NCBI GenBank assembly: GCA_040954595.2
Contig: CM082581.2
Coordinates: 13,527,921-13,591,920 of the forward strand
Source of the DNA: Balanoglossus misakiensis
Lineage: Eukaryota; Animalia; Hemichordata
Reading direction: 5' to 3'
Length of the DNA stretch: 64,000 nt
Part shown: one piece after another, positions 1 through 40,427 of the stretch
Layout: each line of letters starts with the position of its first letter
Position numbering within the stretch: the stretch's first letter is position 1
Notes under the pieces: generated by a model
What the model was told of the DNA's origin: nothing
Database searches by the model: none
Seen by the model: the letters and a program-made list of their open reading frames with translations, nothing else
Made by a program: the position numbers and the translations under genes

Positions 1-462
1 ACTTAAACTCTAGTTTTTAGTATTTTTAAGAATTTTTCGGTACATTGTATTTGGGTATAGGAGTGTGTTTCAGCTAAACTTTCTTGTTCAAACTATATGC
101 TGTTGCGGGTGTTTACCTTATCAACACAACAAACATGGATGTGTGTAGGTGTACCATGTCAACACTGTAATTTATTGCCCACTGTACTTATTTCGACAAC
201 TTCTCTTAGCCAATCAGGGGGATTCAACGAGAAGGGACTGGCTCAAGTTAGACCGCGCTTGCGTACTCTGTGCTCTTCACCAGTCAAATTCTCTGATGCC
301 CCCATACATGCGATTGTAGACTGGATGGATGAGATATCCTGATATGTAGGAATAAACATTTTCAATTTTATTCATATTTCTCTCAGATATTCCAAACAAG
401 TCTATCCAGAGCTGGACTCAACTCCATGGTCAGTGTTCAAGGGGAAACACTCTGCGGGTCAA

Positions 463-3400
463 ATGTCGGGGGAACGATCACTAACGCCACGCAGCAGCTT
501 CGGAGTCAATCAAGAAAATGACATGACGAATGAAAAAAGACAGAGTACTGTCAGATACCTGCCGAGGAGAGATACCACGTTATCCAAGAATGCAGAGTTT
601 TTAGAACAAGTGAGTTGGAATGTCACGCTTTTTATTTTATTTGCTCGAGACTTCTTAAGTTTGTCATGACAAACTGTGAGTTTGTATTTTATTTAAATTC
701 GGCCAATGTCAGAAACACACATATTTGAAGCAGAATAGTTAACTCAAGATATTTCATTCCAGGAATCTCCCAAAGCTTTGTTTATTGCCAATACTTTCAA
801 GAAAAAGGAATGTATACGTTTTGTGCAGAATCCAGCCAAACCAGAAAACTAGTGAGTATGAATTACCAACATTCAAATCGTGTACCATTGCTGATAATTG
901 CTTTTTCCCAACTGAATGAAACATGGTTCACAAAATATCCATTCATTGTGTGTATATCTCTGTCATCAGTTGTTGCTGTGGACATACACAGGAGAACCAC
1001 ATTCTGCCGGTTGATGGGGCGCATGCACCTCCTCCGTACGAAGCAGCAGTACAGGCAGACAGGCCCTGGAGTTTGAAGAATGATGTCAAAAAATTCCCTA
1101 CTGATTCGTTCGGCAAGATCAATTTTGTCAGTGAAGCTGAGGGAACGAAAAAGCCAGCAAAGGTATCAATGTTGTGTCCTCCTGAGTTTGTTGATATTGT
1201 TGTGGACAGTGTACACAGCATGATCTGTTGCATGGTCACAAAACATGCCTGATTATCAGGTACAATGTCATTCCATGCACCTCATATAACATTTGACCCC
1301 TTCTCATGCAATACCTGGTGAAGTAAGTAGACATTTGAGGTGCACATCATTTAAATAACACAGCGGAGCAATGAATCATGTTTTCTTTCCACTCTTCAGT
1401 ACGTAAGACTCTCTAACGACACGCCGCTCAACTCTATTTTGGAGTTGTTCAATGTGTGGAAACTACCGAGGCCTAATCTTGTGATCTCTATTACTGGAGG
1501 TGCCAAGAACTATAAACTTGGAGAACAACATGCAGAAATATTTAGCAGAGGCTTGGTCAAGGTGAGCATCAAATATTATGTCATTAACATTTTGCTTCTT
1601 TGCTTGTTTTTGTTTCTTTGGCACATTGATGGAGACATCTAGAGTAAGATAAAATATAGAAATCAAATACTAGTGCTCTTTTCTGATTTGTAACATTTTG
1701 ACGTACACAGGCAGCGCAGACTACACCTACGTGGCTTTTGACAGCCGGAACGAACATCGGGGTCGTGAAAGCTGTTGGGGATGCAGTTCGGGAAGGACAA
1801 CGCATGCAGTGGGTCGGAGGTCGTGCCAAGAGAACAGTGCGATGTATCGGCATTGCATCGTGGGGATACACTGAAGACAATGATTGCCTGGTCAGCTCAG
1901 ATGGAAGGGTGAGAAATATTTTACTTTAGCACAATTTTGGTCAAACGCACAGAATGGCATTTTCATAGCCACAAACAACTGAGAAACTTTATTATCCAGT
2001 AGTAAACGCCCACACAAGTCAATGTTTATTGCATTGCTTTCCTGCTACACACGTCATCGATGAATTTCGTACTTGTGTTCGTCCCAAGTTGAGTGGCAGT
2101 AGAGTTGCAAAATACCTCACTCACTAAGAAACTTTACCACCTCTTCTCTCTACTGCATAAAAATGTGAATGATATATTGGCCTTCTAAATGTCAAGATTA
2201 TCTCAATTAAATTTTAACATGGTGTACCTTACAAATCATTCTGTTCTGTTTCACTTTGTTTTTATGACTTAGCAACAGTGAATTGGCTTTTAGAGGGGGG
2301 TGTTGATATTGATCAGATCAGATCAAGTGGAGCTGGCAATATTGCTGACACATCTATTATACTTTCTTGATTAAAATGTTTCAGTGGATAAATAAAAGAT
2401 GAACGCCTTGTACATTTATACTCTGTTGACTGGTCTACATACATGTGTACATCATATAGTTTACCCATTTCCTTTGTTGACAGGTAACTATGATAGAAAA
2501 CCATTTCTTGAAGGCATGTATTTGAACAATCTTTCTACTGTTGCTCTTTCTTTGCAGGGTTTATACCCAGCCAGTTACAAAGTCAACCCAGTTATTAGAA
2601 GGGGTCACCCAGTCCCGCTGAATCCCGAACACACCCACTTTGTGCTGGTGGACAACGGCACCGATCTTAAGTATGGTGTGGAGTTGGATCTCCGGGCAGA
2701 GCTGGAGAAAAAGATTTCGGCGCCAGTCGATCCTGATGATCCAGAAAGTAAGTCAGCTTGATATCATTTATGTAATGGGCAGTTTCATAAATATAACGAG
2801 CAAAGTGTTTGTGAGAATTCTCTGCCCATATATCTAATCCTGGTATGATCCGTGTTTTGCAGATGATGGCTTAGGCATCCCAGTAGCAATGCTGCTAGTC
2901 GAGGGTGGTGTTGATGCCATATACACAGTGAAGAAGGCCGTATCACGTGGCATACCAGCTGTGATCTGTGAAGGCACTGGCCGAGCAGCCGACATACTGG
3001 CATTTGCTTACAACAACGCTGTCACTAAAGGGTGAGTAGTGCATTGGAACTGCACATGCATGTAATTCTGTCAGTTGCTACGATGATTTGTTAGATCTAA
3101 GGACTACTTTCAGCGAAGTTCAACGAAGCGATCGATAGTGAAAGTGTCTTCAATCACAGGCCACCCTGATAGCCTGTGGTACATCATAGGTTTTACACAA
3201 TCTATCATCTGAGATTTCTTCTCCCTTGTCTTGTCCAGCAATGTTGTACAGCTGAAGAGAGATAAAATCAAAATCTTGCGGGAGAAGTTACAGTCTGCAT
3301 ATGGCAATGAGCAGAGTGTTGAGAAATTGGGCACTGTTTGCAAGGACATCCTGGAGACTGTGGCGAATCGGAACTTGGTCAGTAAAATCATTTCATTGTT

Positions 3401-6400
3401 CTGAGCCAATATTCATCCAGTTAATGCACTAAACAAAGATGTGAAATGTCGCTGTGGTTGTTGATTGCTGTTGATTTCTATGACTGTCTATTTCTTTGTA
3501 CAGCTGACAGTATTCGACATGGACAGAGGAGACAAAGCAGAGATGGATTTGGCGATTCTCACAGCTTTACTTAAAGGTAATTTCACATGGCATGAAAATG
3601 ACCTATTGAACTTATCACCTTTATCTGATGAATTATCAGTATCTGAATTATCCTGGTATTATGTTGAATGTACATGTACTTTTTTATGCATAATTAAACG
3701 TCTCCTTTGACTAATTTGTCTAGGTTCTGGTGTCAACTGGAAACACCAGATTGAATTAGCGTTGTCATGGAACTGTATTAGTGTGGCTCGGGAGAAAATC
3801 TTTACAGAAGACAATACATGGAAGGTAAACAATTCATTTGTAGAAACAATTACATTGTAAAACCTTATGAAAGTAGCCTGCGCCACTAACGGCCATTTTG
3901 TAAATTATTTTGTTTTTACACAGTTGATCTTGTGTCAATTTCTGCATTCAAAAGTTTTCAAAAGATATGTTTCTTAATGTCAATAGGCAATTTTGATGAG
4001 TAATTATTAGTATATCAACAATCTACAGATTCATTATTCTTCATGATTTATTTTCAGGGTGAAGAACTTCATGACTACATGACACAGGCATTGATGGACA
4101 ACAAAGTAGAATTTGTCAGGTTGTTTTTGGAGAATCAGGTCATCATGCAGGAATACTTGACAGTTGCAAGACTCAGGAAACTTTATAACTCGGTAAGTTA
4201 GCCACCAAAGTGGGTGGGGAAAACACAAGAGGGATGACTTCAACTGTAGAAAGTATCTGATCAGATCTCTGCAGGTATCGGCAGCATCTGCACGTACCTG
4301 AGGGAGACAGTGGTTGTTTCACTAGATTGTCATGCACTGACACTGTACATATAGAAATTGTTCTCTAATTTGTTCTTTTGCCAACAATCTGCTTATCTGT
4401 TTGTGTTTACAGGCTGCACCCGGGTGTAATTTTCGAATTGTGATGAGCAAGTTAACACCCTGTAAGGTAAGTTACACCCTGCAATTGCGCAGTTAACTTT
4501 GTCAGTCCATTGATTGGTACAATGTACACCCAAGAGAGGTATGTAGTATATTTATTTATTTATGAATGGCTGTAATAAGATTATTGTGTGTGTCACATCA
4601 CTGTCTACAGAAAGAAGGTCCATTCTCCCTCCGTGACATCGGGTGTTTGATTGGGAAGATGATGGGTGCTCACTATGAACCATTGTACCTCCGAGATAAG
4701 AAGTTCAAAGGAACGGCCAGGGATATGAGAGCTTTTGCTGCTCTCTCTATGAATCTAGCAGGTAAATAGTACATGTACACAATCACACACATATATCTCT
4801 GGTACTCATAGCTATTTGGTTCATTCTCTGTTCTGTAGCATCAAGTCTGATTCATTGTAAAACATGTACCTCTGTTGTATGTGCTGTGATTGGTCAAAAC
4901 ATTGTCACATGGGGTGTGTCAATGTACAGTGGCATGGTACATCTAGTATTACAATTACATCAATGTGATTGGTCAACAGGTATGAGTGTGGTCCACAGGG
5001 CCTATCAGGAATACCAGAAAAACTCTGAAGAAGGACATGTGAATCACCTGAGAGATGATCAAGACGATGAGGAACCCATTATGGGTTCTTTTGAGCTCAC
5101 CAATCCTGCCATGAACTTCAGTAAACCTTTCCGAGAACTCTTCCTCTGGGCTATTCTCATGGGCAGGTATGGGAAAAGAATCTCATTCTCCACTGTACAC
5201 AGATCTGGTTAAATTGCCCTTTATTAGAAGTACAGACTCAGTAGATATCGGATTTTTGGTCTGAGTCAGCTTTTTGCTCAGTTCAGTATTACAGAACGTA
5301 TGACATACACTTTCCAACTTTGCAATTTAATGAGTGTCCACATTTGGTAATCTTTTATTTTGACCCTCCAGGATTGATATAGCGGAGTTTCTATGGGAAC
5401 TGGGTGATGAAGCCATCTCCTCCTCCATAGCAGCCGTTAAGATATTCACATCAATGTCAGATTACATCAGTGATCCAGAAGACAAGAAAGGGTATCAGGA
5501 AAATGCAAGGTAGATTTGATGATGGTTGTGATTTCTAACACATAATGGTGGTGGTGGCGGTGGCGATGATGATGATGATGATGATGATGTGCCATCAGTG
5601 TACTTAAAATAAAACTGCATTGTGTGTGTTGATTATTTATCGATATATTCAAATAACCATGTTGCATCAAATATTCTCTGCACCCGTAGCAAATTTGAGA
5701 AGTTGGCCGTCAGTGTGTTGGATGAGTGTTACAGCATCGATGAGGTGTTGGCTGAGATGTTGATAGAAAGACGACACTCCAACTGGGGAGGAAGAAATAT
5801 ACTCAATGTTGCCGCTGAAGCCAACTGTAAGGTGAGAATCACTAGAAAATTTTATTGCTTATCAGTGTTTTAAAATGTGGCTGCCTCGTACTGCAGTAAC
5901 AGTCTCACATGACTTTTTTGCCAGCAAGGAATAAAAAGCCTCAATTTAGACGAATTTATTTTTGTATTATAACATCCTCATGTTTTTATTTGGTCCACCC
6001 TACAGGAGTTCATATCGCATGCATGTTGCCAAAGTCTTCTCGACAAGATCTGGCATGGAGGAATCCGATCATCTTCACTTATGGTCAGTTCCTATTCATT
6101 TGTAACTTTTTGTCCAGGTGATACTAATACTCCTTCAACTTGTAAAATTGACGTCTAATGTCTCTTATTAAAATCTTTTAATCTTTCAGTGGTGGGATTT
6201 CCTTTGAATTCTTCAGCAAGGTACCTGTCTAGTCTCTTCTGTCCCTTCATCTTTATTTCCGTGCATTTCCTTCAATAAATTAACTTCAATAACTTTTGTT
6301 AACTGTCTTTGCTTGTAGAAGAAACATCTACGCTTTTCATTGGCTTAGACCCATTCCCTCAACCATACATTGGCAGATTGAAATTCAGACATTTTAATAT

Positions 6401-9400
6401 ACACCAGTCATGGTGAAATTTGTTTGTATACATTTGCTTGGACATCAGCCAGTTTCTAACCATGTTTTGTGTGGTATGTGTGTGTTTTAGATTGTAGTAG
6501 CTGGACTGGTGCCGTGTGCGATGCTCAGCTTGAACTATGAGAAGGAGAATGAAGAGGATACATTGACACCATTCAAGAAGATTTCAACTTATATCAATGC
6601 TCCTGTGTCAAAGTTCTGGGGAGGAGCGGTGAGTGAAGTACCATAAATCATGTGATTATTATGAGCAAAGCAGTATCTATGGCAATACAACTGTAGTTGG
6701 AAAAGTTGATGTTCATTTGTGTATCACTTTTCTTTTTTGCAATGAATAAGTGGCAATTGTATTTTTTGTTTGTATTTCAGTTTTTGTACATTGTATTCCT
6801 GCTGTGGTACAGCTATTCAATCCTTTTTGATTTCAACACCACTCCCAATGTGGGAGATTGTCTCATATTTGCGTGGATTTGCACGATGGTTGTTGAAGAG
6901 TTCAGGCAGGTCAGTTAAGACTCTTACTATCAGTTGTCATCTTAATTTAAATAAAAGAATGCAAAATTAATTTGCTTTAATTGTGTATTTCAAATGTTTT
7001 AAACTCACCTCTGATTTTTAATCCAATTTAAAATTGAAATATTTTGTGTATTTGAGCAGCAAAAATACATGTCAGCAAATGATAGATATTATACAGTCCA
7101 AAGTGTACATCATCACTTTGAAATGCTGTTGATAAGTTCATCTTTTTCTCGCTTCGAATTCATAGTCACTTATACCAGAAGAGAATGAGACCGTGGGCCA
7201 GAAAGTACGGAAGTGGGCAAGCAGCTGGTGGAACATCATGGATTTAGCCAGCATTGTCATCGCTGTGGTGGGATTCATCTTCCGCTGGTTCCCGGTGACT
7301 CTGGAAGTGGCTCGGTCCCTCTACGCCATCAACTGCACGCTCTTCATCCTGAGAATCCTGAGGATGTTTTCTCTGAACAGCACGCTTGGACCCAAGCTGA
7401 TCATGATTGGCAAAATGGTATGTGGATATACATGTATGATTATGGAGTGGGAGAAAGTTTTCTTCTCAAATGTGATGTTCCTACACAACAGTCTTGCCAA
7501 CCTGTGTATTAACATATCCTACATCTCATTCTCTCTGTACATGTAGTTACAAGAAATGGCCCTGTTCCTGGTTCTCTTGTTTGTGTTCATGATTGCCTAT
7601 GGAATAGCAGCTCAGGCTTTGCTGTATCCACGGAGACAACACTGGTACTGGGGGATTCTCCGAGATGTTGTCTACATGCCCTATTTCCAGATTTATGGAG
7701 AACTATTCCTGGAAGAAGTTGACCCACAATATGGTAATGAAAAGTTTAATTTTCTTTTCATCATTACAGCCTAAAATTACCAGTGACCTTCCTTGTTGAA
7801 CACTGGACCATGTCACCAACTCGTGTTTTTGTAACTTCTGATTGCAGGTGATCCTGATGACCCACAGTGTGATGCCACCAACCTGGATCCCACCCAGTCA
7901 TGTTCCGGGGGTCATCCAGTCATTCCGTTCCTCCTTGCCATCTACCTCATCATTGGCAACGTCTTGCTGCTCAACTTGCTGATTGCCATCTTCAGGTAAG
8001 ACCCATGTGGGCGGCCATTGATCATTACACTGTGTGGCAATTAACAGAGAAGATACCATTCCCAAGCTTCATAACATGAAGTAAAATCTTATTTGTTTCA
8101 ACTTGCTTCTCAAACAGCTATGTCTTTGAAGAAGTACAGACCAATTCCCTGCAGATTTGGAAGTATGAAGTGTACGACTTGGTCATGGAGTTTGAGGACC
8201 GACCGGCACTGGCCCCTCCGTTGATCATATTAAGCCACACCTACCTTCTCCTGAGGTGGCTTTATCATCAAATCAAAAAAGACAAGGGTGTTGAAGGTAA
8301 TTTAACTGTGCATGGACTTTGCCAATATGAAGTAAATGCTTTATGTCTTTCACAATTTCAAACTGATAAAATGTGATTGGTAACCAGTTCTTTTTTTATT
8401 TTTTACAGCTACCGAATATTCAGCAAAGCATTTAGAAATTTTGTGGTTACTTGAAAAAGACTCTGCTGCAAGTTATCGAAAAAAGAAATTGGAAGAGGAA
8501 GAGTCTAGTGTTGAGGAACGATTGAGCAAAATAGAAAAAAGGTAATTCTTTTTAGCTTTTTGTCCACTTGATAAACTCTTGGGACTTTCTCTCTTCGTTT
8601 TGAGTTGTTCAATCTTTTCATCTTTCTTTTGCAGTCGTGTCACACAGAAACAGGAACTCATTATCACAACTATGTTAATGTCAACATCTGTTTCCCATCA
8701 GTAAGTGAAAAGACTGCTGTTTCATTTCACATCACTAATGCTGCATGTTATTCCCTTGTAGGCTTGATGTGATTGCAAAATGTGCTGAAACACTTCTCCT
8801 CAGGGATGATGCAAGACACGAAGGAAAGTCGAAAACTAAGAAAGAGAAGCAAAAAGATGATAAGAGGAAAGACAGTGAGGGCGACACTTACCAAGACCCC
8901 CCTGGTGGCGGTGCTCCAGCAAGTGCTATTACCCAGAGCAACACCCAGAGTCCTGAGCCCGGTAACCATGGCAATGGAAGGGACGGTGAAGGGAAGAGCA
9001 AGACAAAGCAGAAGCTGTTGAAAAGACGCGACGATTATGATATGCCTGGGGGTTCTCAGAGAGATACAGGAATCGGTGAGGTTGATAGTGAAGATGAAGT
9101 AGATGGCTTCGATGAAGTTGTGGCCAAAGTTGAAGAGGCCACCCATATCCTGGTTGATGAGTACATCAGCAGTGGGGCGAAACCTGCTCACAAAAAGAGA
9201 GGAAAAAAGAAGAAATCAAGATCCAAAAAGGACACCGATTTACCACCTGTCGATGTCCGGTCTCTCGGTTTGATACGGGAAGAGGAAATGCGATCGCCGA
9301 GTCCGAAGAGTGTCTTGAAAGCGAGTGGTGATTACAGCGAGAGCATGGATGGTGTCAAGGAAGCTAGAAGGGTTCACTTCAATGAAAGTGATGAGACTCT

Positions 9401-9641
9401 CCTCCTGCATGAAGGTGTTGACAGCGAGGATGAAGACCAGCCAAGAAAAAAGAAGAAGAAGAAGAAAAAGAAGGATGGCGACCGGTACAAGGAATCGTAC
9501 ATGCTGGAAAACGTCAGCCACTGGAAGAGAGGCGAGAGTGTAGCCACTCCAGTCGAAACAGATAGTGGTAGATTTGAGAAACCAAAATCAAAATGGAGAG
9601 GGGAGTATGATTTGTATCATGCTTCAGATGAGACTGATTAA
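463..9641 (+). CDS. TRPM-family (TRPM2-like or TRPS/soromelastatin-like) cation channel, multi-exon, lacking a NUDT9-H domain; 5' end uncertain
   Basis: Exons translate to SLOG/MHR motifs (PNLVISITGGAKN, CIGIASWG, LNPEHTHFVLVDNG, EGG, GTGRAAD), MHR3/4 (MDLAILTALLKG, FRELFLWAIL, ACCQSLLDKIWHG), S2-S3 (EEFRQ...WWNIMD), S4-S5 (LGPKLIMIGKM), pore (PYFQIYGELFLEE), S6 (NVLLLNLLIAIFS), TRP box (IWKYEVY) and ALAPPL. Stop is TAA at 9639-9641. The exon starting at 387 is open upstream of ATG 463, so a further upstream coding exon is possible. Confidence 0.93.
5545..5589. repeat. (GGT/GAT)n trinucleotide microsatellite in a TRPM intron
   Basis: atggtggtggtggcggtggcgatgatgat... lies just downstream of an exon donor and produces the spurious poly-His ORF on the - strand. 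Confidence 0.9.
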
Positions 9642-10743
9642 CCTTAGGCCACCAAGGGGTCAGGGTTCCAAGGGTCAATGAGGAAGTTGTCTGAAGATCA
9701 GGGTGTTAAGATGCAGTGGGTTCAAATCAGCACATGCCAAGATTTAGCCAATGCAGACAAAGTCATAGTTGTTATGCTTAGTTTTTCTAGCTCAGCATCA
9801 ATTATTTGATCATGAATATGACCACTTTGGAAATTCAGCAAACTACCTCAAAGCAGACCTATACTGCAGAATTAAATGTTTGATGCCAGTTTGAACAGTG
9901 TTCTGTGGGCATGAGATAGCATGCACATATGCAAAGTTTTGATTGTACAGTACATGGTATATTTTTATATGAATTATGAAATTTGAAGTACTTGTTTTAT
10001 ATGACAATCATTTTTTTTGTGGGGAGGGGCAATTTCTAATGAATTTTCAGTGTGACAATTGATAGCTATTTTGACAGTATTATGTTTGTTTACAGACTCT
10101 GTGTACATGCATTTATGCAAATGTGTGCTGTAAGATTTTTTATCCAGGCTCAGAAAAATGAGTTTTATATAATGAATTTTATTTTATTTTAAAACAATAC
10201 AACTGGAAGAACAAATTCAAAACATGACATGAAGAAATATTTGCATAGTTATGGACTTACTAAATTAAACGCCAAAGAATTTTTAAAATAAAACTTACAA
10301 TCAGTGGTAAGTTAATGAAAACATTAGGGGTGCTAAACACACAATGTTTGTGATAGCTTTTACATCTTACACTTGTATCTGCATAGACTTTACTCGCCAT
10401 CAACATCATTGTTCATTTAGGACATGACGTTCTACCAACGAAGTTGTGCTATGTGAAATATGTGAAACATACACAAAAATAGAAAGCTCACAATTTTGCA
10501 TAAGAACTGAGTTCACCTGCTTACATTTGTACAAAAAATCTCCAGTTGTAAAATTTATTAGTATTTCCACTGTAAATATGTAATATCATGTAAAACATAT
10601 ATGTATAATGCTACAATATAAAACATGAAAATATACTGCAAAAGTTCGTCTAAGAATGTTGGATGGAAATTGAAATTGATCTCTGTTGAGATGAGTCATG
10701 GACAGTCATGACGTATAATATTACGGGATGCGTAAGGGTTCTC

Positions 10744-11595
10744 CTAGGGTTTTACACAGTCACACTCTTCTAGCTGACTTAGGGGGCCATTCAGGTTTTT
10801 CGTCTGAAACAGATAGAGACACAACAAAAGAATTAGAAAAGAACACATATTCCAGAATCACATTTTATTCCCACTTGGAGAAAAAATTCCACAATTCCTG
10901 GGAATGTTGTATCGCATGGATGCATCAGCTGGAACCAGTAGTGTAATATTACTTGACATGTTAATAACATGTGTCAAGTAACAATTAATGTATCCTGTAT
11001 AGTGGACACCAGATATGTTTTTATGCCGCCAACGTCATCTACGGTTCTGGTTTAACAGTTACCCCACTTAGAGTTACTGACATTGCACATTCCTGACCAG
11101 TGACACAATTGTTTGCAGAAAATGTATTGATTTGAGTAGTTTGAACTGGACAGGGTTAGGGGGAAATGTTAGAAATCGACATTACAAAGCTCATTTTTGA
11201 CTCAGAAGTGTCACATCATATGTGAGGAAACTGATCTGAAAACTGATAGTGATTTGAAGATGAAAGAAAGTAATATCTACTAACCCTTTCATTAAGTTGT
11301 TCAGCCGACTTCAGCATACTATCCAAATTATCTTTTAGTTGTTCATGGTAACTGCATTCTACACATGGATGCGCTGTATAAGGATGATGTTCAGAAAAAT
11401 ATATATGAGCTCTCTGACAGTAATGGACAAAAATTAAGGATTTCCGTTTTTTTTTTTTACCTGAAACAGTAAAGAAATGAAGAAAGAGAAAAAAAACTTA
11501 CCAGCAGTCTTGAGATTCGTCTCCTCAGCTTTGCAAGTCGATATTAAGAACTGCATCACAACTAGTACCAAGATGAATGCTGTGCCTCGTTTCAT
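10744..11595 (-). CDS. Predicted ~80-aa secreted coiled-coil microprotein (signal peptide + CxxC-coiled coil-CxC, resembling the NELL oligomerisation segment), 3 exons
   Basis: Exons: 11595-11502 (caaaaATG; MKRGTAFILVLVVMQFLISTCKAEETNLKTA; donor gtaagt), 11373-11285 (AHPCVECSYHEQLKDNLDSMLKSAEQLNER; donor gttagt) and 10803-10744 (TKNLNGPLSQLEECDCVKP*; long polypyrimidine acceptor). Splice phases 1 and 0 are compatible. AATAAA on the - strand at 10554-10559. Confidence 0.72.
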
Positions 11596-12380
11596 TTTTG
11601 TACAAACTATAGGACTTCTTCAAGGGGACTACAACTGTAGCTTTGGTAGTGAATATTTGTCTGAACGAGAAACTGCTGTTCGACGATCTAAGCTCGGCTA
11701 GTATAAGTCCTTGAATGAGTGGCGTATACGTACGAACAGTGAATGAAACATACACGAAAGGTGACCTTAACCTCTGAATGTAAATATAGCAACGAGTCAT
11801 CAAAGTAAATGTAAATACGGAAGTGATTACGCCCTCTTGGGCAAGGAAGGGACTATAATGATATGCACGTCTTGATCTGACTGGTCTCCTAGCAACCATC
11901 ACGAGGAATAATATCAAGGAATTAACTCTTCTCCCTGGGTAATAGATCAGGCACTTTTAAGGAAATTTTATTTACATTTAACTATTCTTTATTTGTGATT
12001 TTTTTCTGACAACTCTTACACCTCTGTGGTTTATGTATCATATGCTGTTGGAACCATATGTACTTGTATCACAGCATACTGAATGAGACTGAAAATGTAA
12101 AGCTCCTGACACTGAGTTTGAAATATTCCAAGTCTTTTTATTCTAACCAAGCATTCCAATGTTATCAGAAGGTAATGATTGAAGACTCCCTTATTGCACA
12201 TAGATAGCATTCTACAACTTCAAGTAAGTTCACGAGACACAAATTGGACTGCTTGCAACATCGCCATAGTTAACTCTTCAGCAGCTGGTCATTGTCGACA
12301 GCAAGTTTAACATTTAGCAAAACTGTCCCAACATGCTGTTGTTGTTTGTATCAGTAGTCAATTCTTTATTCACAAGCTTG

Positions 12381-13255
12381 TCACCTCTGAATCGTTGTCA
12401 GTTGATCTTGAAGGGTTTCCATCTCACCAACACTAAAAAAGATAAAGGAAAATGAAATTCTGATGTAGTGTTGTATGACAATGTTGTTTGTTATGTCAAA
12501 ATTCAAATGCAACTTTAAGGCTGTCCTTACCTTCGTTCAATAGCTTCTGCCCTGCAAATGAAATATTCAAGACGATTAAAACATTTCATCCATCATTAGC
12601 CACAATTATTTTTGCTAAATACTCTTAGTTTACACAATTCGTCAAGCACTTGGCCTTGCTCTTCTGATGCTTTATTCCAACACAACTTCTGTGCAATCAG
12701 TGGAACTGTAAGTAGGTGCCCACTATAAACTGAATCACTTTGTTGGTGTTACTTACTGAAACTGTAGATGTGAAACCAAAATCCCCATCTTCCTGATGCT
12801 CTAAGGGTAATAAACACACATTCAATATATTATAATTTGATGGTGTTTCCATTCATAATAAATGTCTCATCATGGAATTACTAAAATACTAGCTCCACTG
12901 TTATATATGCGTATAATGGCCGTACTTACTGCTTCAGATGCCTCAACTGTATTTTCTGATGACGAAAAATTCTTTGCAGCTTGCATCAAGAGCTGGAATT
13001 GTAAAGAAATAAATGATGCAGCATAGAGATTATGATGAATGATGTTGATCATGTTGATACAAGATCCTCCCCTCGTTTTCAAAATGCACCGATCCATGAT
13101 CTGTGCGACATTTTCGTGAGATATAATACGCAAGATAAACGTACTTCATTTGACTTTGATCCACGTATGATTTGTCTGACAAGCGAACCCGAATCGTTGA
13201 TATTTTCGTGTATTTTTGGTAATAACCTCGGATCCAGCACTCTCCCGGAAGCCAT
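12381..13255 (-). CDS. BORCS7: BLOC-1-related complex subunit 7 (BORC), 5 coding exons
   Basis: Stitched protein MASGRVLDPRLLPKIHENINDSGSLVRQIIRGSKSNE|LLMQAAKNFSSSENTVEASEA|SIRKMGILVSHLQFQ|AEAIERS|VGEMETLQDQLTTIQR* matches recalled BORCS7 motifs (KQVLKGSRSSELLGQAARN, SLRKMAIITTHLQYQQEAI, LQDQL). All introns are GT-AG and phase-compatible. AATAAA lies 11 nt past the stop. Confidence 0.92.
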
Positions 13256-13544
13256 TTTCCAAATGAAGTAACATACCCTTTTGCGACAGATTTTGCGACA
13301 GGTCAAAGGTAAGTGTGGTTGTAAACACTCCGTCTTCAGTGAAAACGCTGACCTATGCAGTTGTCTTCGTAGTACAGTGGTAAACTTCGTCTTGTCTGCT
13401 TCGTAATCACCTGTGCACATTCTTCTGGGACGAAATGAACGTCTGTATCTCAGAGTAACTTCATGAAATAGCAAATTACGAAAGATCATAGACGGGCGTT
13501 CACAATCATAGACGGTTACAGTCGCGCGACTGAGACTGTTTACC
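13256..13544. promoter_or_regulatory. Probable bidirectional promoter BORCS7/UVSSA
   Basis: Divergent ATGs (13255 on -, 13545 on +) are only ~290 bp apart, and the interval is CpG-enriched relative to introns. Confidence 0.7.
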
Positions 13545-16500
13545 ATGTCACAGGAGGCTGACGATTCGTTAGATCACGGTATATGCCTGGAACTCGCCCA
13601 GTTGGTGGAAGAACTTACCACTTCAGGCTCGCCATCACTTGATAAGGATGGGATAAAGAAAATTAAGAACATTTGTAGGTAAGTGAGTTGCCTGGTTGAC
13701 ATGCAATGATGATGATGATGATTGTGGTGATGATGATGATGATGATTGTGGTGGTGGTGATGATGATGATGATGAAGATTATCAATCACCGTTTTAATAA
13801 GTCAGTAGTAATCACCATGTTCATTTTATTCTGTCACTCATCAGAACATCCAACAAGTATGTGGAACATACATTCCACCTTGTCATGAAACAACTCGACA
13901 AAGATCACTCTGAAGTTCGACTCTCAGCATTCCAGATAATAAATGAACTATTCTCAAGATCCCATGTTTTCCGGGAATTGCTGGTTGAAGATTTCCAGAC
14001 TTTCTTGGAACTCACTGTGGAGACAGATCATGAGCAGCCCCTCCCACCTCCACAGCCTGCTGCCAAGATACTGAGAGAAAAGACTTTACAAGCGATTCAA
14101 ATATGGCATGAAAAGTTTGGACAAGCCTATAAAAAACTTGCATTGGGTTACAACTTTCTAGAACATTGTAAAAGGGTAATTATAATTTCCCTTTCATTTT
14201 TATGGAGACATTTTATTTGGCACTAAAATATGAGTGTATATATACAGAACATGTATAGTACTAGTATTTACACAGTTTTATTTTAGATTAATTTCAGGGA
14301 TATTCATGCAAGGACTGTAGTTGAAAGACAGAGAGAAGAGGTGCGACAACAAAGACAACGGAATATTCTAATGGAAAAAGCAAACAGAGTTGTCAAAGAA
14401 ATCGAAGGTGAAAATCAAAATATAGCTCAGTCAAAAATAGCTTCAAGGAATAGTCTTTTCATTTCTGTATCAAAATGATAGCATTCTTTTTTTCGCTTGA
14501 ACTAATGATGGAAACAGATCCTTTCTTTTTAAGACAGATATCTTCATCTTTTTCTTCCGTAGAGACATTGCCAGAAATAGAGCAGTGTTTGACAGAAGCA
14601 AAGAGCTGTTTTCAACTTTTACTACCTCACCCAGATGAATATGGAGATTTCAATAGCACTACTGAGGACACATCCAGTGAAAATAAACTGGCCAGTGATG
14701 GCAGAATCTGTGACAATGAACACAAGAAAGCGGGTAGTGAAACAGAGTGCAAAAATGACAGTAAATCAGGCATAAAATGTTTCAGTAACTCTTCCAAGAG
14801 ATCAAGGCAATCAAACAATAGTTCTGCGCAGAGTGATGCACAGTCTGATAGGCAACAAGACACCAAGAAAAATCCACTACAAACAGAATCGGGCAACACC
14901 AATGACAGGACAGATAGAAATGAGCAAAGTAAATCTCTCACTGAAGATGAATCTGAACATGGAACTAGAAATAATGAAGAGGAACATGCCAGTGATGATG
15001 ATGAGGAGGAGGCGGAGGAATTTGAGGATGTGGCTGATGCCGGTGAAGGAACAGAGGGTGGCAGTATGCTGCAAGCTCACGGCATGAGTTCCTGGAATTA
15101 CAGCATCAATTTGGAAATTCATCCAGGTCTGTACATGTATAGAGACTCCATGAATATAATAATTATCATGTATGATTAGCTTTATTTTTGTGACAAGAGT
15201 CACTCAGCCCTTTGAAATGTTCACAGAATGTGTCACAATAGCATATCTTATTTGCATTATAGAAAATTTTGTTCCTTCAAATGCAAATAAGTTTCTTTTC
15301 TCAAATTTGTCATAATAGATGAAATACACATCAAAGAAGATGAGGACAACACTGATATTTTGCAGATTTTACATGACATGCATAAATTGGCTACAACTTC
15401 GTATTTTCCAAAAATACAAAGATGGCTGGAGGTATAGTAGTGATGACATTCCTTGATTATTTCACTTCAGTACTCACCATGAAAAAAAACACAGCTATGT
15501 ACTTCCATATGATCATGCATCCACCTGTGATTATTTTCACCAACCTAGAGGTACATGTAAAGTCATGGATATCTCTCTAAAACAAGTTTCAACTTTTCGC
15601 AGGTACTCAGTAAATCTGGGCACGCTCAAGATCAAGTCAAGAAGGTCATTGACATTAAATCAGCTCTGGAACAATTCCGAGATAAATGCAGTGATTTGAA
15701 GATTGAAAGGACGCTGAGAGAGCGGGAAACGGTGAACACCAAAGGAGAAGGAGACAGCGACAGTGATGAAGAGTTTGAAGAAGTTCCGGAGAAAGAAGGA
15801 TATGAACCGAGGATCCCGGATCACTTAAGGGAGGAATATGGTAAGATTAAAGCTGAACTTGAACTTTCTGTATGTCCAGATATGATACAACAAGATTGTA
15901 TGTTTGCTTCTCTTTCTTTCCTCTTAGGTTTAGAGCCTTATGATGAGAAGAGTGACTCTTCTAAACTGTGGTCTCTAGGCGACAAGACTCAAATTGTCGA
16001 AGAACTGAAAGATCCCACCTCCAGAGCAACAGCAATTTCAAATATGAAGAGAAGACTTCACAATATACAGAAATCATTACAGAAAGCGTAAGCATCCTCT
16101 ATATTGCAGAATAAAATGCTAAAATTTTATCAGCTGAACTTAACTGCAGGCTGGTAGATTACTAGAGAATTTTACTGAAATGCACATATCTATCTTTCTG
16201 TGTGATTACAGAATCTCTGGTTGCAGTGAACTTGACAATGAACCAACTGCATCGACATCAACTGATTTGCCGCCTCCTTCCAAGAAACGGAAAAGTGATC
16301 TCATGTCCAGAGCTCCCAAGGTACCCTTCAGCATGGACTTGTATTATTGGGAAAACCCTGAAGATATACAAACACCAACCATTATCAGGTAGGGGAGGTC
16401 GGATGCGCATAAATTGCTGTGCAGCAAGAATGAAATCTACATGTTGTGAATTTCGTTTCAAAAGAATGCTTCAGTCGACAAGTCATATATAGTGTCACAT

Positions 16501-18069
16501 TCTGCCATATAGATTCTCCCATTCGTACATTCCCATTTGAACAGGAATGTGATCATGCTTAAACTGGGTATTATTTTTTTACAGGCCAGATTCAAGCCAT
16601 AGAGGTTGGATAGCCGTAGAAAATGATGAAATTGTGATGGAGGTAAGGGGAATACTTTGTTTATGAAACTGAAATCAGCTATGTCATGAGGTAACAGATT
16701 AAAAAACGACAGCTATTTCTGGTTCAAGTCCTATTATTGTCTTCTGAGGTAATCCATTCCATGTGGATTGTTGTACCAGTATATGAGTCGTGCTAAAGGA
16801 AGACAAAACTACAACTTCCCGTGTTAGACATTTCATGTAACTTCTCTTTCTAGGGTATGAAAGACATGCTGAACTTGAGAAAAATTGACTTTGTCGGGAA
16901 GTTTGAACCAGTCAAATGGAAGTGCCGAGCACCTCTAGCGAACGGAAAACTTTGTGAAAGGCAAGACCGACACAAGGTGGGAATTCATATTGGATTTGAT
17001 TCGATCTGTCTCGAAGTGATGTTAAGTAGCCATTTTGCCACAAGACACAATCAGCATCTTTATTCAGTTGTCAATAGTGCATGTCCTTCTTGTATCAGTG
17101 AACTCGCTCACAACTCCTCAGTAAGCAACACCGGCCTGGTAGTCATCAATTCCTAATTGTTGCATGTGCACATGTATTTGTGTTTGAGCAGTGCCCATTT
17201 CATGGTCTAGTCATACCCAGGGACTCTCAGGGCAAACCAAGCAAACCAGAAGACACAGAAAGGCTTGCAAAGTTACAAAGACTTCAAGGTAATCTTTGAT
17301 TTGAGGCGAATTTATCTAGTTTATTATCTTGTTCATAGCTTGTAATACGAGCTTTGTGTCTTTGCCTAGCTAATTGATTGGTTACCCAGTGTGTCAGTTG
17401 ACATTCTCTTGCATGTATTCATGAATTCATCACTCTCTGCATGGTTTATTTCAATGTTCACTACCCTCTCTTCAGCTGACAAAGCATCTTCATCACAGTG
17501 GAAAGATGAAGAGCTGATGAAAGACATTGAAGGAGCCACCGGTCTTGATTTGGGATCCAACTCTGCCACAGGAAAGGGGAAAGGCAAGGGAAAAGGGAAA
17601 GGAAAGAAGAAGAAATATCCCAATCTGACAGATATCAACAAAATCGAAAACACTACCAGAACAAGACTCGAGAAGAAAGTCTTCAATAAGTATGTCGTTT
17701 TATTGTGTTTTGTGTATTTCTTTGTAGAATTTCATTTCTGCTTGGGCATTTTGATGGTTCTTGACTCTGCAGACGAGGAGTCCTGGTAGTTGTTCACTGT
17801 GGCATACACATCATGGTCATGGGCTATCCTGTATCTGCATACATCCTCAACCTTTCACCTTTCAGGTCACATGATTGATGCAGAGTTCAGCAGATATCAG
17901 AAACTTGTTTATCGGGACATTTAATTAACATAAATGTTGTTGGTTGTTGTTTTTTATTTTCAACAGGTCTGCTATTTCAAGGGTGGCCAGTACTTTAGAT
18001 ACACTGGATTCCAAGAGATACAAAGACAGATATGCCAACAATTTCAATTACGCTTTCTCAAAGCCGTAG
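13545..18069 (+). CDS. UVSSA: UV-stimulated scaffold protein A, multi-exon
   Basis: [12 protein letters not shown]...KKIKNIC; [26 protein letters not shown]; PLPPP; [17 protein letters not shown]; [22 protein letters not shown]; [14 protein letters not shown]; [32 protein letters not shown] (DUF2043 zinc finger); [10 protein letters not shown]; C-terminal [12 protein letters not shown]. Confidence 0.96.
13706..13779. repeat. Compound (GAT/GGT)n microsatellite in UVSSA intron 1
   Basis: gatgatgat...tgtggtgatgat... gives the spurious poly-His and poly-Met ORFs. Confidence 0.92.
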
Positions 18070-20479
18070 AAGATCACCCTTGGTGCATTGACAAGACACA
18101 ACATGCCAAGGATTTCCACATCTGAAAAGAATTGAAAAGACACAGAACAGAAATGTGGTTAATGTGAAAATAGTGTCTCCTCAGGAAATTTGCAGTAAGA
18201 TAATATTTGTCCTTAAAGTCTCACAGTCATGGACAACATATACAGAGTGAAATTCTGTAATTTTAGACCACTGTCATTACATTTTAGTTTGTTCTTGATT
18301 GTTTTCCATACAGTGTTGTATGCATGTATGTGTATATATGTGTGTGTGTGCATTTTACTTGTTTCCTGGACATGTAGTCGGTTATTATTCAAGTTTAAGT
18401 ACATCAATTATAATAATTGATATTTGAGTGAAAACAGCGCCCTCTACGACCTGCATCAACGCACCTTCTGGGAATAGATGGGTGTGGACGCTGAACAGAA
18501 TGGCACCGCAAGTGCATATGTATAAAGGAAAGTGAATGATACAGAGCAATAGATCAGTCGATAAGATCATCAGTCAGCCGGGTCCACCTTTAAATGACAA
18601 TAATCAGTCGGTTTGTTGATTTATATGTCCAACTATCTGCACTTTGTGTATTTTTTTCCTTTATACTGTATTCTCTTCCATTTAATCGGGGAGATTAATT
18701 ACCTTCAAAATATCGGTCTTAAAAGTATAGTGTTGCAAAGTATCAGACGGAACGCCTTGACTTCAGTATCAGGTTACGATTCATCCAATCCATTGACTAT
18801 GTTCGTAACATGTCACAACCAAATTATTCGCTCTTTTTGGTGGCCACGGTCGGTTTTTCCCAGTTTCTTCTGTCCATCCCGTTCCAGTCAAGTTCATGGA
18901 AACTCTAATTTGTAATAGCATTCAGTACAATAGGCCTACAAAGCTTCAGTGTCGTTCGCGTTGTCCGCAATATGGTGTTACACACAACATGAATGGCGTT
19001 CGCTAATACGTTGGCGTGCCTGATGACAAAATACAACACGCAGAGAAAAGAACACGTGCAACCTGTTCTATTGTTTACACAGATCATTCAATGGGAACGT
19101 GTTGAAATGTTAGGTCTACATGAAAACCAGTGAATGCCCCATTTCTGTGGTTTTAATTTGCAACATTCAACTTTCAGAAGCGAAGGAACAAACTCACCTG
19201 GCAGTATTCACAGTGGACATAGTTCGATCAGCATAAGCCTTTCGTATGACAGAAAGAATTGTATTGTTATGCCAAAGAACGTCGGAAACCGGGAATGTAG
19301 CATGTTTAAACTCTGTACCGCCTCTTGTCCACTTTTCCTTTGGCTAAATTTCGCGTTAAGTAAAAGAATTTGACTTTTGTGACGAGACCAGTCGGAGGGA
19401 GGAGAGCTTGCACGCGATGGAAATCTCAAACACGAGGAGAAAATAATACTTTTCTACTGAAAGAAACTTGAAATAATACTCAACACATGCAGACGTATGG
19501 AGAGATGAATTTTACAAAAATCGTGACTTTTGAGTCACAGAATTAAGCAGTAACTGATACCATTAAAAGTGATGGTAGTTTGAAAGGGATTATACCGCCG
19601 TACAGATGGTTAAAATCAAAATCCATTCCGTGTAACAACATTATTAAAATTCGGGATTAAAACGATAGCCTTTTCAGCGTGCGATACCGACGCTGCGAGG
19701 ATAAATCGGTAGAAGAACCGTCTTGCGTGGAAATGACGTTTTCAATAAAGCATTGAGGGACTTGTTGTTGTTCGTGTGAAAATCTATCAGTCAATCTCCT
19801 TCGTTGAGGGTGCCTGCCTCAGAACAATATGGTCGCCTTATACATAGCATACCACATTTAATATAGATGTCAGTTAATCGGTTGTAATGACAAGCGCGGA
19901 CTTTCTTTTGAAAGCCGGCAATGCATCTATTTGGCTAGCGAAAGAGAAAGCGCACCCCCATAGCACAGAAAGGCGGACCATATTGACAGCCATACCCATG
20001 ATGCTTTGGTATTAGCGGGCGCCCATGCGCAAAATTAATAATAGCGTGAAATCGCATAGTGATAATGCTGAATGATTGACGCTTCACACAACAAATAAAA
20101 ACCAATTAAAGAGCAACTAACTAGCAAATAGTTTTACCAGGAAACCGAGCGAATTGGAAATCTGTTCTTCGGCTAAGATAAATATCAATTGGTCGTAAAA
20201 GATAGGGGAACGAAAGGAGAGTAATTGGAGGCTTTTCATGTACATGATACGGACTTTATACGAGATCATGTTTGCACACATTGGGGGCAGGCGTGTCTAT
20301 TGAAGCTCCGCACTGCGACTGAGGGTTTAATTCTCCGCGAAAGGGAAAACTCAGAATAGTCACAAACAATTAACTTTCCGTAAAAGAGCATTAGCGCACA
20401 AGAGTGATAAAGTTGTGGATTTTTGATTGAGTTTGGGTAAATAGCGCTGCCATCTATCGCCAGGATCAGAAGTGTGTCC

Positions 20480-22969
20480 ATGGATAGGATGAGCCTGCAG
20501 AATAGCAAGACTCCGCACCACTTCCTTCCGCCCTTGCCGTTCTATCCGTACTTGTTGCCGATGTATCCGTTCCACGCACATGCTGCGGCGCCGCCGATTC
20601 AAACCGCCGGGACGGACTTCAAAGGCCGGCGAAAGCCCTCGTTCACCATCGACGCCATCCTCGGAGGCAGCACTCTAGACACGCCTGCACTCACTCCCTT
20701 CGGGCCACGGGAGATTCCTTCGGCGGTATCGCGAGATGTCCGGCAACACAGATTTGCAATGTCTTATTCGATGCCACCTGTTGCGTCCAGGCTGAGAAGT
20801 CCGCCCACCTTCAACGCTGCTGGGTTTGCAAGGAGGGCAGGCAACGCGGTGTCCGAATTCTCGAAGAAACTTGAAGATTCAAAGGCAGAAATTTATGTAC
20901 AAGGTGAGAATCGCTGGACACAAGCGTTTTAGATAAATGAAAACTAATATCAGCATTTCCTAACTTCAAATTTAAGTTACAGTGCCGATTTCTTAGGCAA
21001 AAAGGCAACTATTTGAAAGATACGCGCTTTTATTCGACTTAATAATTGCAGACATTAACATTGACTTGCGTTTTATTTATATCTTGAGCACGAAAAGTGT
21101 TGAAAATATCTCTGACACTCGTTAACCCAAACATTTAAAGTTCGAAAATACATTTATCTTGAAGCGGAGAGAGTAAGGAAAAGCTATGTTATTCCAAAGA
21201 ATGAATGTGGTCTCTTTTTTCGGGGTAATTACATGTCATTCACGCTTACATCTTTACTAATATTGAAGTCACAAACCGAACACTACTGTATGCGGGTACC
21301 ACAATAAAACGTGTCAATTCTTAATTTCTTATGTGGGTTTTTTGATCAATGAAATGTAATTGGCGTCAATTAGCACGATTATCACGACGCGTGTCACATT
21401 AGTGCACACGCGCATAGATATCTTTGTCAGGTATCTATGCTATAACGCGCTACCACCAAACCGGTCACAGTTGTAAACTTTGGCTAAAACCACAATAACC
21501 GCGTGTATAGTAGCATCATACGACTCGTTCATAACGCCAATCGCTCCTCGCACCCCTCAGCTAAATTTGGGTACAGTCCCCCTATTTCGCATTGATTTGA
21601 GTAAAAACGTTAAAAGTAACGGTTGAAAAAAAAAACTTATTGCAATACCGGCCCATGTCGTGTATTGATTTGGGCGAATTGAACTCGGGTAGTGCAGTGC
21701 CATGCTATGTTTGTTCAGCCGGTACCGTCAGATGCGATCGAAATTCACCTATTGATGCGATGCGACAAACTTTCAACACATTGCTCTACGCAAAGTCGCT
21801 GGACGTACACGCAATTCAGAAGCTTCTGTGGCGCCGACGCAGTGAACACATATTGTGCAACTAAGGCAAATATCTGAGAAACATAAATGGGATTGTCGAT
21901 AGTTTTTTAATGATTGGATGGCATTCGATCCTGTAACTTTCAATCAACAATTATACCCCTGAATGTTACTATGTTTTACTACGTTTCTATATTATTACTT
22001 GTACGTGGTTGGCCGTCGCAAATTTTATGACGGGAAAGTCTTTGTCTATTCACTGGTATCTGTTCACATTTAATACAAAAAATATACCGTTAAATTTCCA
22101 CGTAAGATGACGCCGTTGTCGTCACAGACAGTGCCTATGTACATACATGTGTAAACACAAACAGGTGGCGTCTTTACATTGCTGGAATTGTGTTCGATCA
22201 TCGAACCGAAACCAAATAATCCGCTTCGGCCACGGACCACTAATGGTTATTAATTCGCCATGCAAACACAACAACATGGAGGAATTAGTGTGAATTTCAA
22301 CCGCTGGGCCTGATCAAACAGCCAATTCGGTTTGGGATAAAAAATGTTCAGCTAATGAGTTGATTGACGATTTTTTCTGGGCTGTAGGAAGGCACCACCC
22401 ATGCATGCTTCACATTGTCAATGATAGCCGTCAAAATCAGGTGCTTACAGTCAGTAGATCGAGCACCATAAATGATTTTCGATTCGTGGCTGGTGTTGAT
22501 GATGATTCAGTTATATTTGGCAACAACAAAAAAGATGATGGTGCATGTACCAAAAAGTCTGCCGTATTTCTGTCCAATAGAATAAGACATTCATGATTGT
22601 CCTGATTTTTTCTGTTTAGGCCCAAGCAGGAAAAAAGAGACACAGACGACGAACGGCTGGAGGAAGCCAAAACCCAAACGAGTTCGAACGATCTTTACAC
22701 CGGAGCAGCTAGACACACTGGAGAGAGAATTCGCCCGACAGCAATACATGGTTGGCAGTGAACGGTACTACCTGGCGGCATCACTCAACCTGACGCAAGC
22801 GCAGGTCAAAGTTTGGTTCCAAAACCGACGAATAAAGTGGAGGAAACACAACCTAGAGCAGCAGCAAACGAAATTGGCCGAAATCAGGGCCAAGCAATTG
22901 GCCGAAGATGGCGTGTCGGACGATTCTGGGACGGAGAACGTTATTGACTCTCAGACTTATCGCGAGTGA
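20480..22969 (+). CDS. NOTO: Not/Noto-class (NKL) homeobox transcription factor, 2 exons (20480-20903, 22620-22969)
   Basis: eh1 repression motif SFTIDAILG in exon 1. The homeodomain [64 protein letters not shown] carries the Not-type RTIFT, QQYMVG and NRRIKWRK-x-x-LEQ features. Phase-1 intron (G|gtgaga ... ttag|GC). Confidence 0.9.
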
Positions 22970-23954: not shown

Positions 23955-26900
23955 ATGCCTGCTAAGAATAGCACTGCATTACTGGGAAAGTTGCGTCAGC
24001 TGATGAAAAACAAACAATATGTTACTGAACCAATACACGCATACATTATACCATCTGCAGATGCACATCAGGTGAGATTTACTAGTACACTGAACTCTTC
24101 CAAAACATGCATTTTGATTTAAATGGACTGTATACTTGTGTTCTGGGAGTGTGATGTTTGCTTTGACCTTTGACCTGACCCTGAGATTTTTTATTTCAGA
24201 GTGAATATGTTGCTGAATGTGACAAGCGGCGAGGGTACATATCTGGATTCAATGGATCTGCAGGTACACACAGTGTCTAGGCCATTAAATACTGCAAAAA
24301 GTGTGAAGAGTTAAAACTGTAGTCTCATTCACCCCTAGTTTCCGTTATAGAGGTCCAACCTTACCATAGAAAACAATGGGTTTGGACTGAACCATGGTGG
24401 TGAACAGGGTTTTTACTCTTCTCTTTGATAACCAGGGAGTGCCATTGTGACTCATACTGAGGCAGCCATGTTCACTGACGGCCGTTATTTCTTGCAAGCT
24501 GAGCAGCAGATGGATCACAACTGGACTTTGATGAAGCAGGGTGAGACGAATGTTCATCTGTTTAATCACAAAGTGCAAATCGTAATGCTTTTACCTTCTG
24601 AAATGCCTGTCAATTATAGTGTATTGCATCTCCAAATAAGGCACTCATGTTAATTTAACAAAATGTCTCTGGTTTGTCTTTATGCAGGCCTGCCTGCCAC
24701 TCCAAGTCATGAAGAATGGTTGGTCAAGGTAAGGGTGGACGAGACAAGACTTCTTTCCAGCACAGCCCCAAAGTATGACACTTATGGCAATTGAACTGAT
24801 TCAAGGGTTCATCCAGCAAATGGCTTCACAGTCATAAAGATAATATATTCTTATCAGACATGTGTAGTTTCATGGCAACATAGAGAGTTATATTTTGTGT
24901 TTTCTCTTATAGACTCTACCAGAAGGTTCAAGAGTTGGTGTCGACCCATTTCTGCTGTCATTAGGTAAAAATGTCATGTAATTGTGTATATGTCAAAAAC
25001 ATGTTTCATGAATAACACTACATTCAGGCTCATTGAATGTACACGTATCTCACAACCACACTTCTTTTCAGAGCAATGGAAGCAAATTCACAAGCACTTG
25101 AAAACAGCCGGACAAACCCTGGTACCCATCAGTCAAAATCTGGTTGACTTGGTTTCCGGTGATGAAAGAGAGGCTCCACCAGATTCACCTATACTTGTGT
25201 TAGACATAAAATATACAGGTGAGCTTGACATCAATTCGGTTAGAACCACTTGGGTCCTCTTTGCATATACCAGTGTTGTTACATCAGAAAAGAGAGTGTG
25301 TATTATATTTGTATCATCACACAGATGACTCGAGATGTCTCTATCATGTCAGATCAGAAGGAAAGAATATACTGTCTTGCCACAAAATATGCACGGTTTG
25401 TAACAAACATATTTAATGCACGGTTACTCATATACAATGAAATTGGAACAGCAAGTTATTCTGTCATTTCTTCAGGTGTATCTTGGGAAGACAAAGTGAT
25501 TAATATTCGTAAACAGATGAAAGAGAAGAAGGCTGAATACCTGGTCATTACAGCTTTGGATGAGGTCGCATGTAAGGATGCTCAATTTTGCATGTATTGA
25601 CATTGTCTTATCTGTAGAATAGCAGGTCCTGTCGAGTGGTATGAATTAGAGCTTTTGTCGAATCTCCTTGGGTTCTTTTAACCATAGTTTGTCTGTCTTG
25701 CCAGGGTTGTTTAATCTGCGAGGTTCTGACATCGAGTACAATCCAGTCTTCTTTTCCTATGCAGTCATTGGTCATGATTCAGCACAGTAAGTCCTGTGAT
25801 CAAAGTATTTCTGCTGTTAATTTTTTTTTTTTTTTTGATGTTTTAGTATTGATATGTTATGCCACAGTGGTGGTGTGTATCTCTTATGAATATTCATTCT
25901 GCATTTCCATTTGTCTGCAGCCTGTTCATTGATGAAACCAAGGTCAGCAGTGCTGTTGCAACTCACCTCAAGGCTGATGAAAGTCAAGTTGAAAATGGTG
26001 ATGGAAGCAAAGGTGTTACCGTAGAAATCCACCCATACAATTCAGTTCAGTCATTCTTGGGGAAACTGTATGCGGATCAAGGTGTTGGACCGAGGACATG
26101 GGTAAGTACTGACCAACACTTTCCAATACATCTATGTGGTCAGTCCTTTTTGTTTAATGCTAACAGCTTGTTTGGTGATAGTTTGATATCAAAGGCAAAT
26201 TTGTGTATTTTCAGATCAGCTCCAAGTCATCCTATGCTCTTGTCAGCATTATTCCAAAGGTAGGTCACAAATTGTCTTCTTTTGCCAGTAACATAGTCCT
26301 GATATCTCTCCCCTATGAGAATTTTCCTGTTGTACATTACACCTCCAGTGCTGTAAGTGCAACACTCACACAGTCAATCTAACTACATTTTCATTTTACT
26401 AAAATCAGGCTTGAACAATTGTTTTTATTCCCCACAGGCCAGAAGAATCCTGCAACCATCACCTATTGCTCTGGCAAAGGCACTCAAAAACGAAGTTGAA
26501 CTGCAAGGCATGAGAAAAGCACATGTGAGTTCAGTTCTATAACCAACTCAGCTTACCTAAATAATACACCCAGGGGTAATATGTTGAGTTAATCCAAATG
26601 TGTTGACAAATTTTAATGTCAAATCTGATTGTGTTAATCTCTTGACAGATAAAGGATGCTGTAGCCCTTTGTGAATTTTTTGCTTGGCTGGAAAAGGAGG
26701 TGAGATATCATTCGTTCCAAGTCATCAAATATACTAGTATTTGTTGATTCATATTTTCTAGCATATTCTCTGACTGCAGTGGTACTGCCAAAACATCCAC
26801 AAAGTGTACATGTGTTGATTGTTTCAATCACTGAAACAAGTGGAAAATACATTATTTCTGGAATTCAAATCATATTTTGAAACACCTTTTACACTTGTGT

Positions 26901-39775: not shown

Positions 39776-40427
39776 TGTTGTCATGGCAGTTGAATCGTGC
39801 AAGGGTGAATTAACCCTTGCACACCCCCATTTCTGTGCAAATGGTTTGCACCATGCCAATTGGAAGCAATGGGTTCAAACCATTTTATGGTGGTGCATGG
39901 GGAAGGATCGGAGGAAAGTATGCAGGGAATTATTACAGTACGGAAATTGAAATTTTCAGGGTTTTTTCTCCCATATACTCTCTATTTACATATAGATAAG
40001 ACTTCTTTCAAGTAATCACCTTGATTTAAATATTTCAGTCATTACTTCTGAAAGCAATTTAATTTTTCACCTTGACAATCTTTGCTATTTTTATCTTTGA
40101 TCTTCATATACATTCCATAATCTTTCAGATAAAACAATCTATTTTTCAGATACTCATCTAACATATCAAAAAAGATAATAATACATATCTTCGCTTTCCA
40201 AGCCAAAAAGACTAAACTAATCTAATCAATATGTTTAATTAATTAAGAAACTTTTACGTTTATTCACCGTAGCTATGAGTATTCACGCGCCTGTGAATAT
40301 ACTACTACCGGTATTGTTGTATGCATGTGTGATACTCATGTATGCGAGCAACGGGTTTATGTGCATGCTTATAACAACAAAAACAAGCCAGTTTAAGAAG
40401 ATATTCTAAGATATGCATAAGGGTCAA

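Follow-up and report, generated by a model that had tools for sequence, protein, structure and literature searches.

The closest known protein to the 80-residue protein encoded on the minus strand at 10744-11595 of the window (the whole stretch of 64,000 nucleotides analysed here) is, by sequence comparison, vertebrate NICOL (C4orf48), which the original prediction overlooked. We consider it likely that the protein is a NICOL orthologue in what is probably an invertebrate, where it would supply the third helix in a NELL coiled coil. We regard it as a probable new addition to a known family, from outside the vertebrates. The kind of protein is already known and its mechanism has been solved in vertebrates.

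Three minus-strand exons of 94, 89 and 60 nt join into 243 nt, which correspond to 80 codons and a stop, with the frame intact. When we re-derived the protein at the DNA level, it was identical to that of the original prediction, the exons splicing in phase. Coding exon 1 (11502-11595) carries the ATG, which is preceded by an A-rich context, the predicted signal peptide (residues 1-23, 11595-11527) and the first mature residues. Intron 1 (11374-11501) is 128 nt long, in phase 1, with a GC content of 0.28. Coding exon 2 (11285-11373) contains the CxxC motif (C35-C38, 11365-11354) and most of the helix, and it is the NICOL-like part of the protein. Intron 2 (10804-11284) is 481 nt long and in phase 0, and coding exon 3 (10744-10803) encodes the last heptads, the CxC motif (C75-C77, 10764-10756) and the stop. 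The gene has its own polyadenylation signal, as had been predicted, with an AATAAA (10554-10559, minus strand) that starts at 10559, 185 nt past the stop. The GC content of exons 1, 2 and 3 is 0.44, 0.38 and 0.47, compared with 0.28 and 0.36 in introns 1 and 2. The presence of the gene model in the DNA sequence is confirmed, and its splicing and expression are predicted.

The original prediction had described consensus splice sites. Both introns are GT-AG and their donors are strong: of the 65 GT sites in the interval from 11595 to 10560, the first donor (11501) scores highest and the second is tied for second place. A simple pyrimidine score puts the exon 3 acceptor among the best four of 50 AG sites, whereas the exon 2 acceptor falls outside the top eight and is weak. 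Intron 2 also contains a real alternative acceptor at 11145, in frame, with a simple score at least as high as that of the acceptor at 10803. Its use would produce a 23-residue tail that lacks the CxC motif. We enumerated three-exon splice paths that start at an ATG, encode a hydrophobic N-terminus and contain CxxC-x36-CxC. Exactly one path was found at the locus, the proposed one, and none was found in the 92 other segments of the window or in 300 Markov resamples, looser Cys spacing included; this chance control is only indicative, because the splice filters were chosen with the real sites already known. A separate feature of intron 1 lies at 11460 on the minus strand, where a good GT donor comes directly after a strong pyrimidine tract and an AG. 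This AG/GT is located 41 nt beyond the first donor and resembles a recursive splice point.

Residues 4-17 of the predicted protein form a strongly hydrophobic stretch, in which the 11-residue Kyte-Doolittle mean reaches 2.95, and C21 and A23 satisfy the -3/-1 rule for signal-peptide cleavage. These hydropathy-based predictions agree with the classical signal peptide claimed earlier, and its removal would leave a mature chain of 57 residues. The cysteines are at positions 21, 35, 38, 75 and 77. C35, C38, C75 and C77 form CxxC-x36-CxC, in which 36 residues separate the two motifs, and the frame stops three residues past the CxC. Between the motifs, the heptad register places H41, L48, A55, T62 and L69 at the a positions and L44, M51, L58, L65 and L72 at the d positions. 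It is the only one of the seven possible registers with a hydrophobic core (mean hydropathy 2.26, compared with 0.74 for the next best), which bears out the heptad-like Leu/Met pattern described previously. AlphaFold2, run without an alignment on the 31-residue exon 2 piece, predicted one helix at residues 6-29 with a mean pLDDT of 87. Three features of NICOL/C4orf48 are found here: a size below 100 residues with an N-terminal signal peptide (by hydropathy), four bundle cysteines in CxxC-x36-CxC, and a single heptad-core helix between the Cys motifs, for which the helix prediction covers the exon 2 part alone.

We compared the protein with the secreted C4orf48 peptide (Supplementary Table S12 of PMC11093611) and with chicken NEL 228-270 (methods of PMC13044245), counting identities by eye against one sequence of each over the 43-residue span from the first to the last Cys. 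In all three, 36 residues separate CxxC from CxC and the alignment needs no gaps, and the NELL-type Cys spacing of the original prediction is indeed that of chicken NEL 228-270 (PMC13044245). By eye, 13 of the 43 residues are identical to C4orf48, including 9 of the 39 non-Cys residues, and the Pro ahead of the first Cys is shared as well. The binomial P for 9 of 39 is 0.003, 0.013 or 0.04 at a chance identity of 8%, 10% or 12%, respectively. The same count against chicken NEL gives 6 of 43, of which 2 of 39 are non-Cys residues, a chance level. Several of the identities with C4orf48 sit on core leucines of the coiled coil. The central four core positions are A-L-T-L in both the present protein and C4orf48 but L-T-L-A in chicken NEL.

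The resemblance to C4orf48 is uneven along the chain. All nine non-Cys identities are within the first 31 positions, and the nine residues ahead of the CxC have none. The core of the last heptad, L69 and L72, is nearer to that of NEL (M, L) than to that of C4orf48 (A, R). By eye, NICOL is therefore the closer of the two over the first 31 positions and not in the last heptad. The layout otherwise matches that of NICOL/C4orf48, a small secreted protein with a signal peptide, a short linker, Pro-CxxC, one Cys-capped helix, CxC and a short tail. The differences from NICOL are the probably non-vertebrate host and the Leu/Leu core of the last heptad, which is as in NEL. With the coiled coils of NELL1, NELL2 and chicken NEL, the protein shares CxxC-x36-CxC, the heptad register and the hydrophobic last-heptad core. 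It differs from NELL1 and NELL2 in having no LamG, VWC or EGF domains and from the chicken NEL coiled coil in its non-Cys residues. The original prediction had presented a new kind of protein, which is not supported; NICOL/C4orf48 already has this anatomy and the higher number of identities.

Single exons were also compared with 24,736 Pfam families. The only match of exon 2 was to Neuropep_like, with an E-value of 0.051-0.085 and a score of 13-13.7 bits, which is below the curated cut-off of 27 bits for this family (PF15161). We take PF15161 to be the C4orf48 family, in keeping with the title of Endele 2011. The match is gap-free and colinear and covers model positions 14-42 of 61. Exon 3 encodes exactly 19 residues, which equals the remainder of the model after position 42, and had no Pfam match by itself. 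No kielin/chordin-like or thrombospondin family in Pfam matched the single exons.

The gene is flanked on both sides by other genes. The upstream neighbor is a BORCS7-like gene (12383-13255, minus strand), in which two exons match Pfam BORCS7 with E-values of 2.9e-5 (first exon) and 0.032. It is complete, with five exons whose edges are approximate, about 96 codons and its own stop, followed by its own AATAAA sites at 12370-11972. We considered whether exon 1 could be a continuation of this upstream gene and rejected the idea, because the BORCS7-like gene has its own stop and polyadenylation signals. Downstream, a convergent TRPM gene on the plus strand ends at 9641. Of the 11 Cys-rich stop-free stretches from 9641 to 13300, which include exon 3, none appeared EGF- or VWC-like by eye. 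The gene is stand-alone and not part of a NELL gene at the locus, because BORCS7 and TRPM flank it and EGF- or VWC-like exons were not found in between. The locus has no room for LamG, VWC or EGF domains, whose absence had been part of the original prediction. The BORCS7-like gene is mostly invisible at the ORF level, and it is arranged head to head with UVSSA, about 290 nt apart.

UVSSA (13545-18060, plus strand; Pfam UVSSA_N E-value 3e-47) is the second neighbor and serves as a synteny marker. Its start is about 2 kb from the ATG of the NICOL-like gene. For the UVSSA query exon, 230 relatives were found; among the 120 listed, which include few invertebrates, the best is the brittle star Amphiura at 72% and the named vertebrates reach at most 66%. 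When all UVSSA exons are summed, the crinoid Anneissia is highest, with 595 bits compared with 566 for the next. These comparisons make an invertebrate host probable, perhaps a deuterostome. Human C4orf48 (PMC8077161) and human UVSSA (PMC10772785; PMC7275220) have both been placed at 4p16.3. A UVSSA-C4orf48 linkage is thus shared at the level of the cytoband, a weak synteny.

The window holds several other genes. Two TRPM-type channel genes occur on opposite strands within the 64 kb, at 1-9641 (plus) and about 40400-47300 (minus). The last exon of the first (8739-9641, plus) contains 300 codons of acidic and Lys-rich low-complexity sequence with no Pfam match. A homeobox gene (20441-22969, plus; Pfam E-value 1.6e-23) is located just past UVSSA, and we take its homeodomain to resemble the Not class. 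It is followed by an M24 aminopeptidase-P-like gene at about 24900-28100 (plus). A vinculin/alpha-catenin-family gene at about 30500-39800 (plus) matches Pfam Vinculin at 32993-33475 and at 39211-39531 and has a Pro/Ser-rich insert near 37300-38000; it seems longer than is usual for the family. A PH-domain gene at about 53800-56200 (plus) resembles rhotekin. The human counterparts of the BORCS7, Not, UVSSA, aminopeptidase-P-like and rhotekin-like genes are located in the related 2p, 4p and 10q regions, an arrangement consistent with a single ancestral linkage group.

Searches for relatives used exon 2 queries of about 30 informative residues, which have little power. A word-index search of 5.8 billion proteins with the exon 2 region gave no candidate at 51-163 or 164-2000 residues, and phmmer with the short 31-residue exon 2 piece gave no match at an E-value of 0.001 among 1.84 billion representatives. 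A sequence search of the PDB with exon 2 did not return NICOL and gave a single chance match, to frataxin (E-value 1.2), and exon 3 gave none. The ESM Atlas, a search of low power, had no match at 0.9 or above and none that was usable, and Foldseek with the model of the 31-residue helix found none. Among 592 pattern matches in metagenomes, two passed tblastn. Both were rejected as chance matches in bacteria: the first falls within a long frame resembling, by eye, a cell-division penicillin-binding protein, and the second is outside any listed ORF. The literature covered, from which subscription papers were largely absent, contained no relevant report of an invertebrate NICOL, and the NICOL work found in it concerns vertebrates. 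Supplementary Figure 5 of PMC13044245 may be relevant to how widely the family occurs, as may Supplemental Figure 1A of PMC11093611, in which homology to 'more distant genera' is reportedly depicted.

Studies of the vertebrate proteins provide insights into a likely function. NICOL and NEL have been reported to form a disulfide-locked 2:1 helix bundle that activates ROS1; in the solved complex, which consists of chicken NEL and human NICOL, each end of the NICOL helix carries three disulfides (PMC13044245). NICOL is described as an activating co-ligand that is needed for strong ROS1 signalling (PMC13044245; PMC10125973). In mice, it is reported to be essential for NELL2-ROS1 signalling and male fertility, and Nicol-null animals phenocopy Nell2 and Ros1 nulls (PMC10125973). 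Every structural element of the NICOL role is present in the protein described here, and its mechanism is for this reason most likely the same. Once the signal peptide has been cleaved, the mature 57 residues would form a single helix, capped by CxxC at one end and CxC at the other. By analogy to the chicken NEL/human NICOL complex, one copy would combine with the coiled coils of two chains of a presumed host NELL to form a three-helix bundle, which would be closed by six inter-chain disulfides. In this way, the NICOL-like protein would make the NELL dimer more rigid and enhance signalling by a ROS1-type receptor. The original prediction had proposed co-assembly with NELL through disulfides, which is likely and matches what has been described for vertebrate NICOL (PMC13044245).

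The original prediction had further proposed that the protein could be a dominant negative. In this model, a lineage-specific offshoot of the NELL coiled coil poisons NELL oligomers. The Cys spacing equals that of chicken NEL and the last-heptad core is NEL-like, as expected of such an offshoot, and replacement of one chain in NEL is reported to reduce the receptor-binding arms from three to two (PMC13044245; PMC13100127). However, the identities with C4orf48 counted by eye are twice those with NEL, and the Neuropep_like match and the UVSSA linkage also point to NICOL. A dominant-negative role is moreover unlikely because NICOL, of equal anatomy, forms the 2:1 bundle with NEL and activates ROS1; it lowers the valency and yet raises ROS1 activation (PMC13044245), and its knockout resembles the loss of Nell2 or Ros1 (PMC10125973). 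We consider the offshoot quite unlikely. By analogy to NICOL, the effect on NELL signalling would probably have the opposite sign.

Membership in the NICOL family could also be combined with independence of NELL in this host, the protein being a homo-oligomeric or monomeric secreted ligand. A core that is hydrophobic throughout, last heptad included, is found in NEL, which forms homo-oligomers (PMC13044245; PMC13100127), and vertebrate C4orf48 has a reported NELL-independent activity that involves TFRC uptake and RNA binding (PMC11093611). On the other hand, A55 and T62, two small residues of the core, also occur in NICOL, whose solved role is in a hetero-bundle (PMC13044245). NELL genes have also been reported in non-Drosophila arthropods, other protostomes and chordates (PMC10084454; PMC7083938), which argues against a NELL-independent ligand, and we regard this alternative as unlikely; a 2026 structure paper states that NELL2 is absent in invertebrates (PMC13100127). 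It is very unlikely that the frame is not expressed as modelled, whether because it is a decayed remnant or because splicing to the 11145 acceptor leaves the CxC out of the product. The exon 2 queries, with their low power, found no orthologue, the 11145 acceptor scores at least as well as that at 10803, and the exon 2 acceptor is weak. However, the frame is intact, the introns are in phase, a polyadenylation signal is present and the GC content is exon-like. Only the path through 10803 restores the exact 36-residue spacing of NICOL and NEL.

Under the favored assignment to NICOL, the NELL-like last heptad hints that NICOL arose from a NELL coiled coil. We see an even chance that NICOL predates vertebrates and arose by a partial duplication of the NELL coiled coil, the present protein being the missing bridge, with its first four heptads NICOL-like, the last one NELL-like and the Cys spacing of both. 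The accessible text of PMC13044245 does not say that NICOL and the NEL coiled coil share an origin. If the duplication took place as proposed, the NELL-NICOL heterotrimer, and possibly ROS1 activation too, would be an ancestral signalling unit of deuterostomes or bilaterians. NICOL would then be a natural one-domain microProtein that activates its parent protein rather than blocking it.

The NICOL-like gene shows that small split genes slip past annotation at the ORF level. What would be new, if confirmed, is a non-vertebrate member of the NICOL family and its mixed NICOL and NELL character. Confirmation of an invertebrate NICOL would make the partnership between NICOL and NELL older than vertebrates. 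It would also date the co-ligand mechanism earlier and offer a testable origin of NICOL from the NELL coiled coil. Finally, for animals without the fly ligand BOSS, an invertebrate NICOL would suggest a complex that could serve as the ROS1 ligand.
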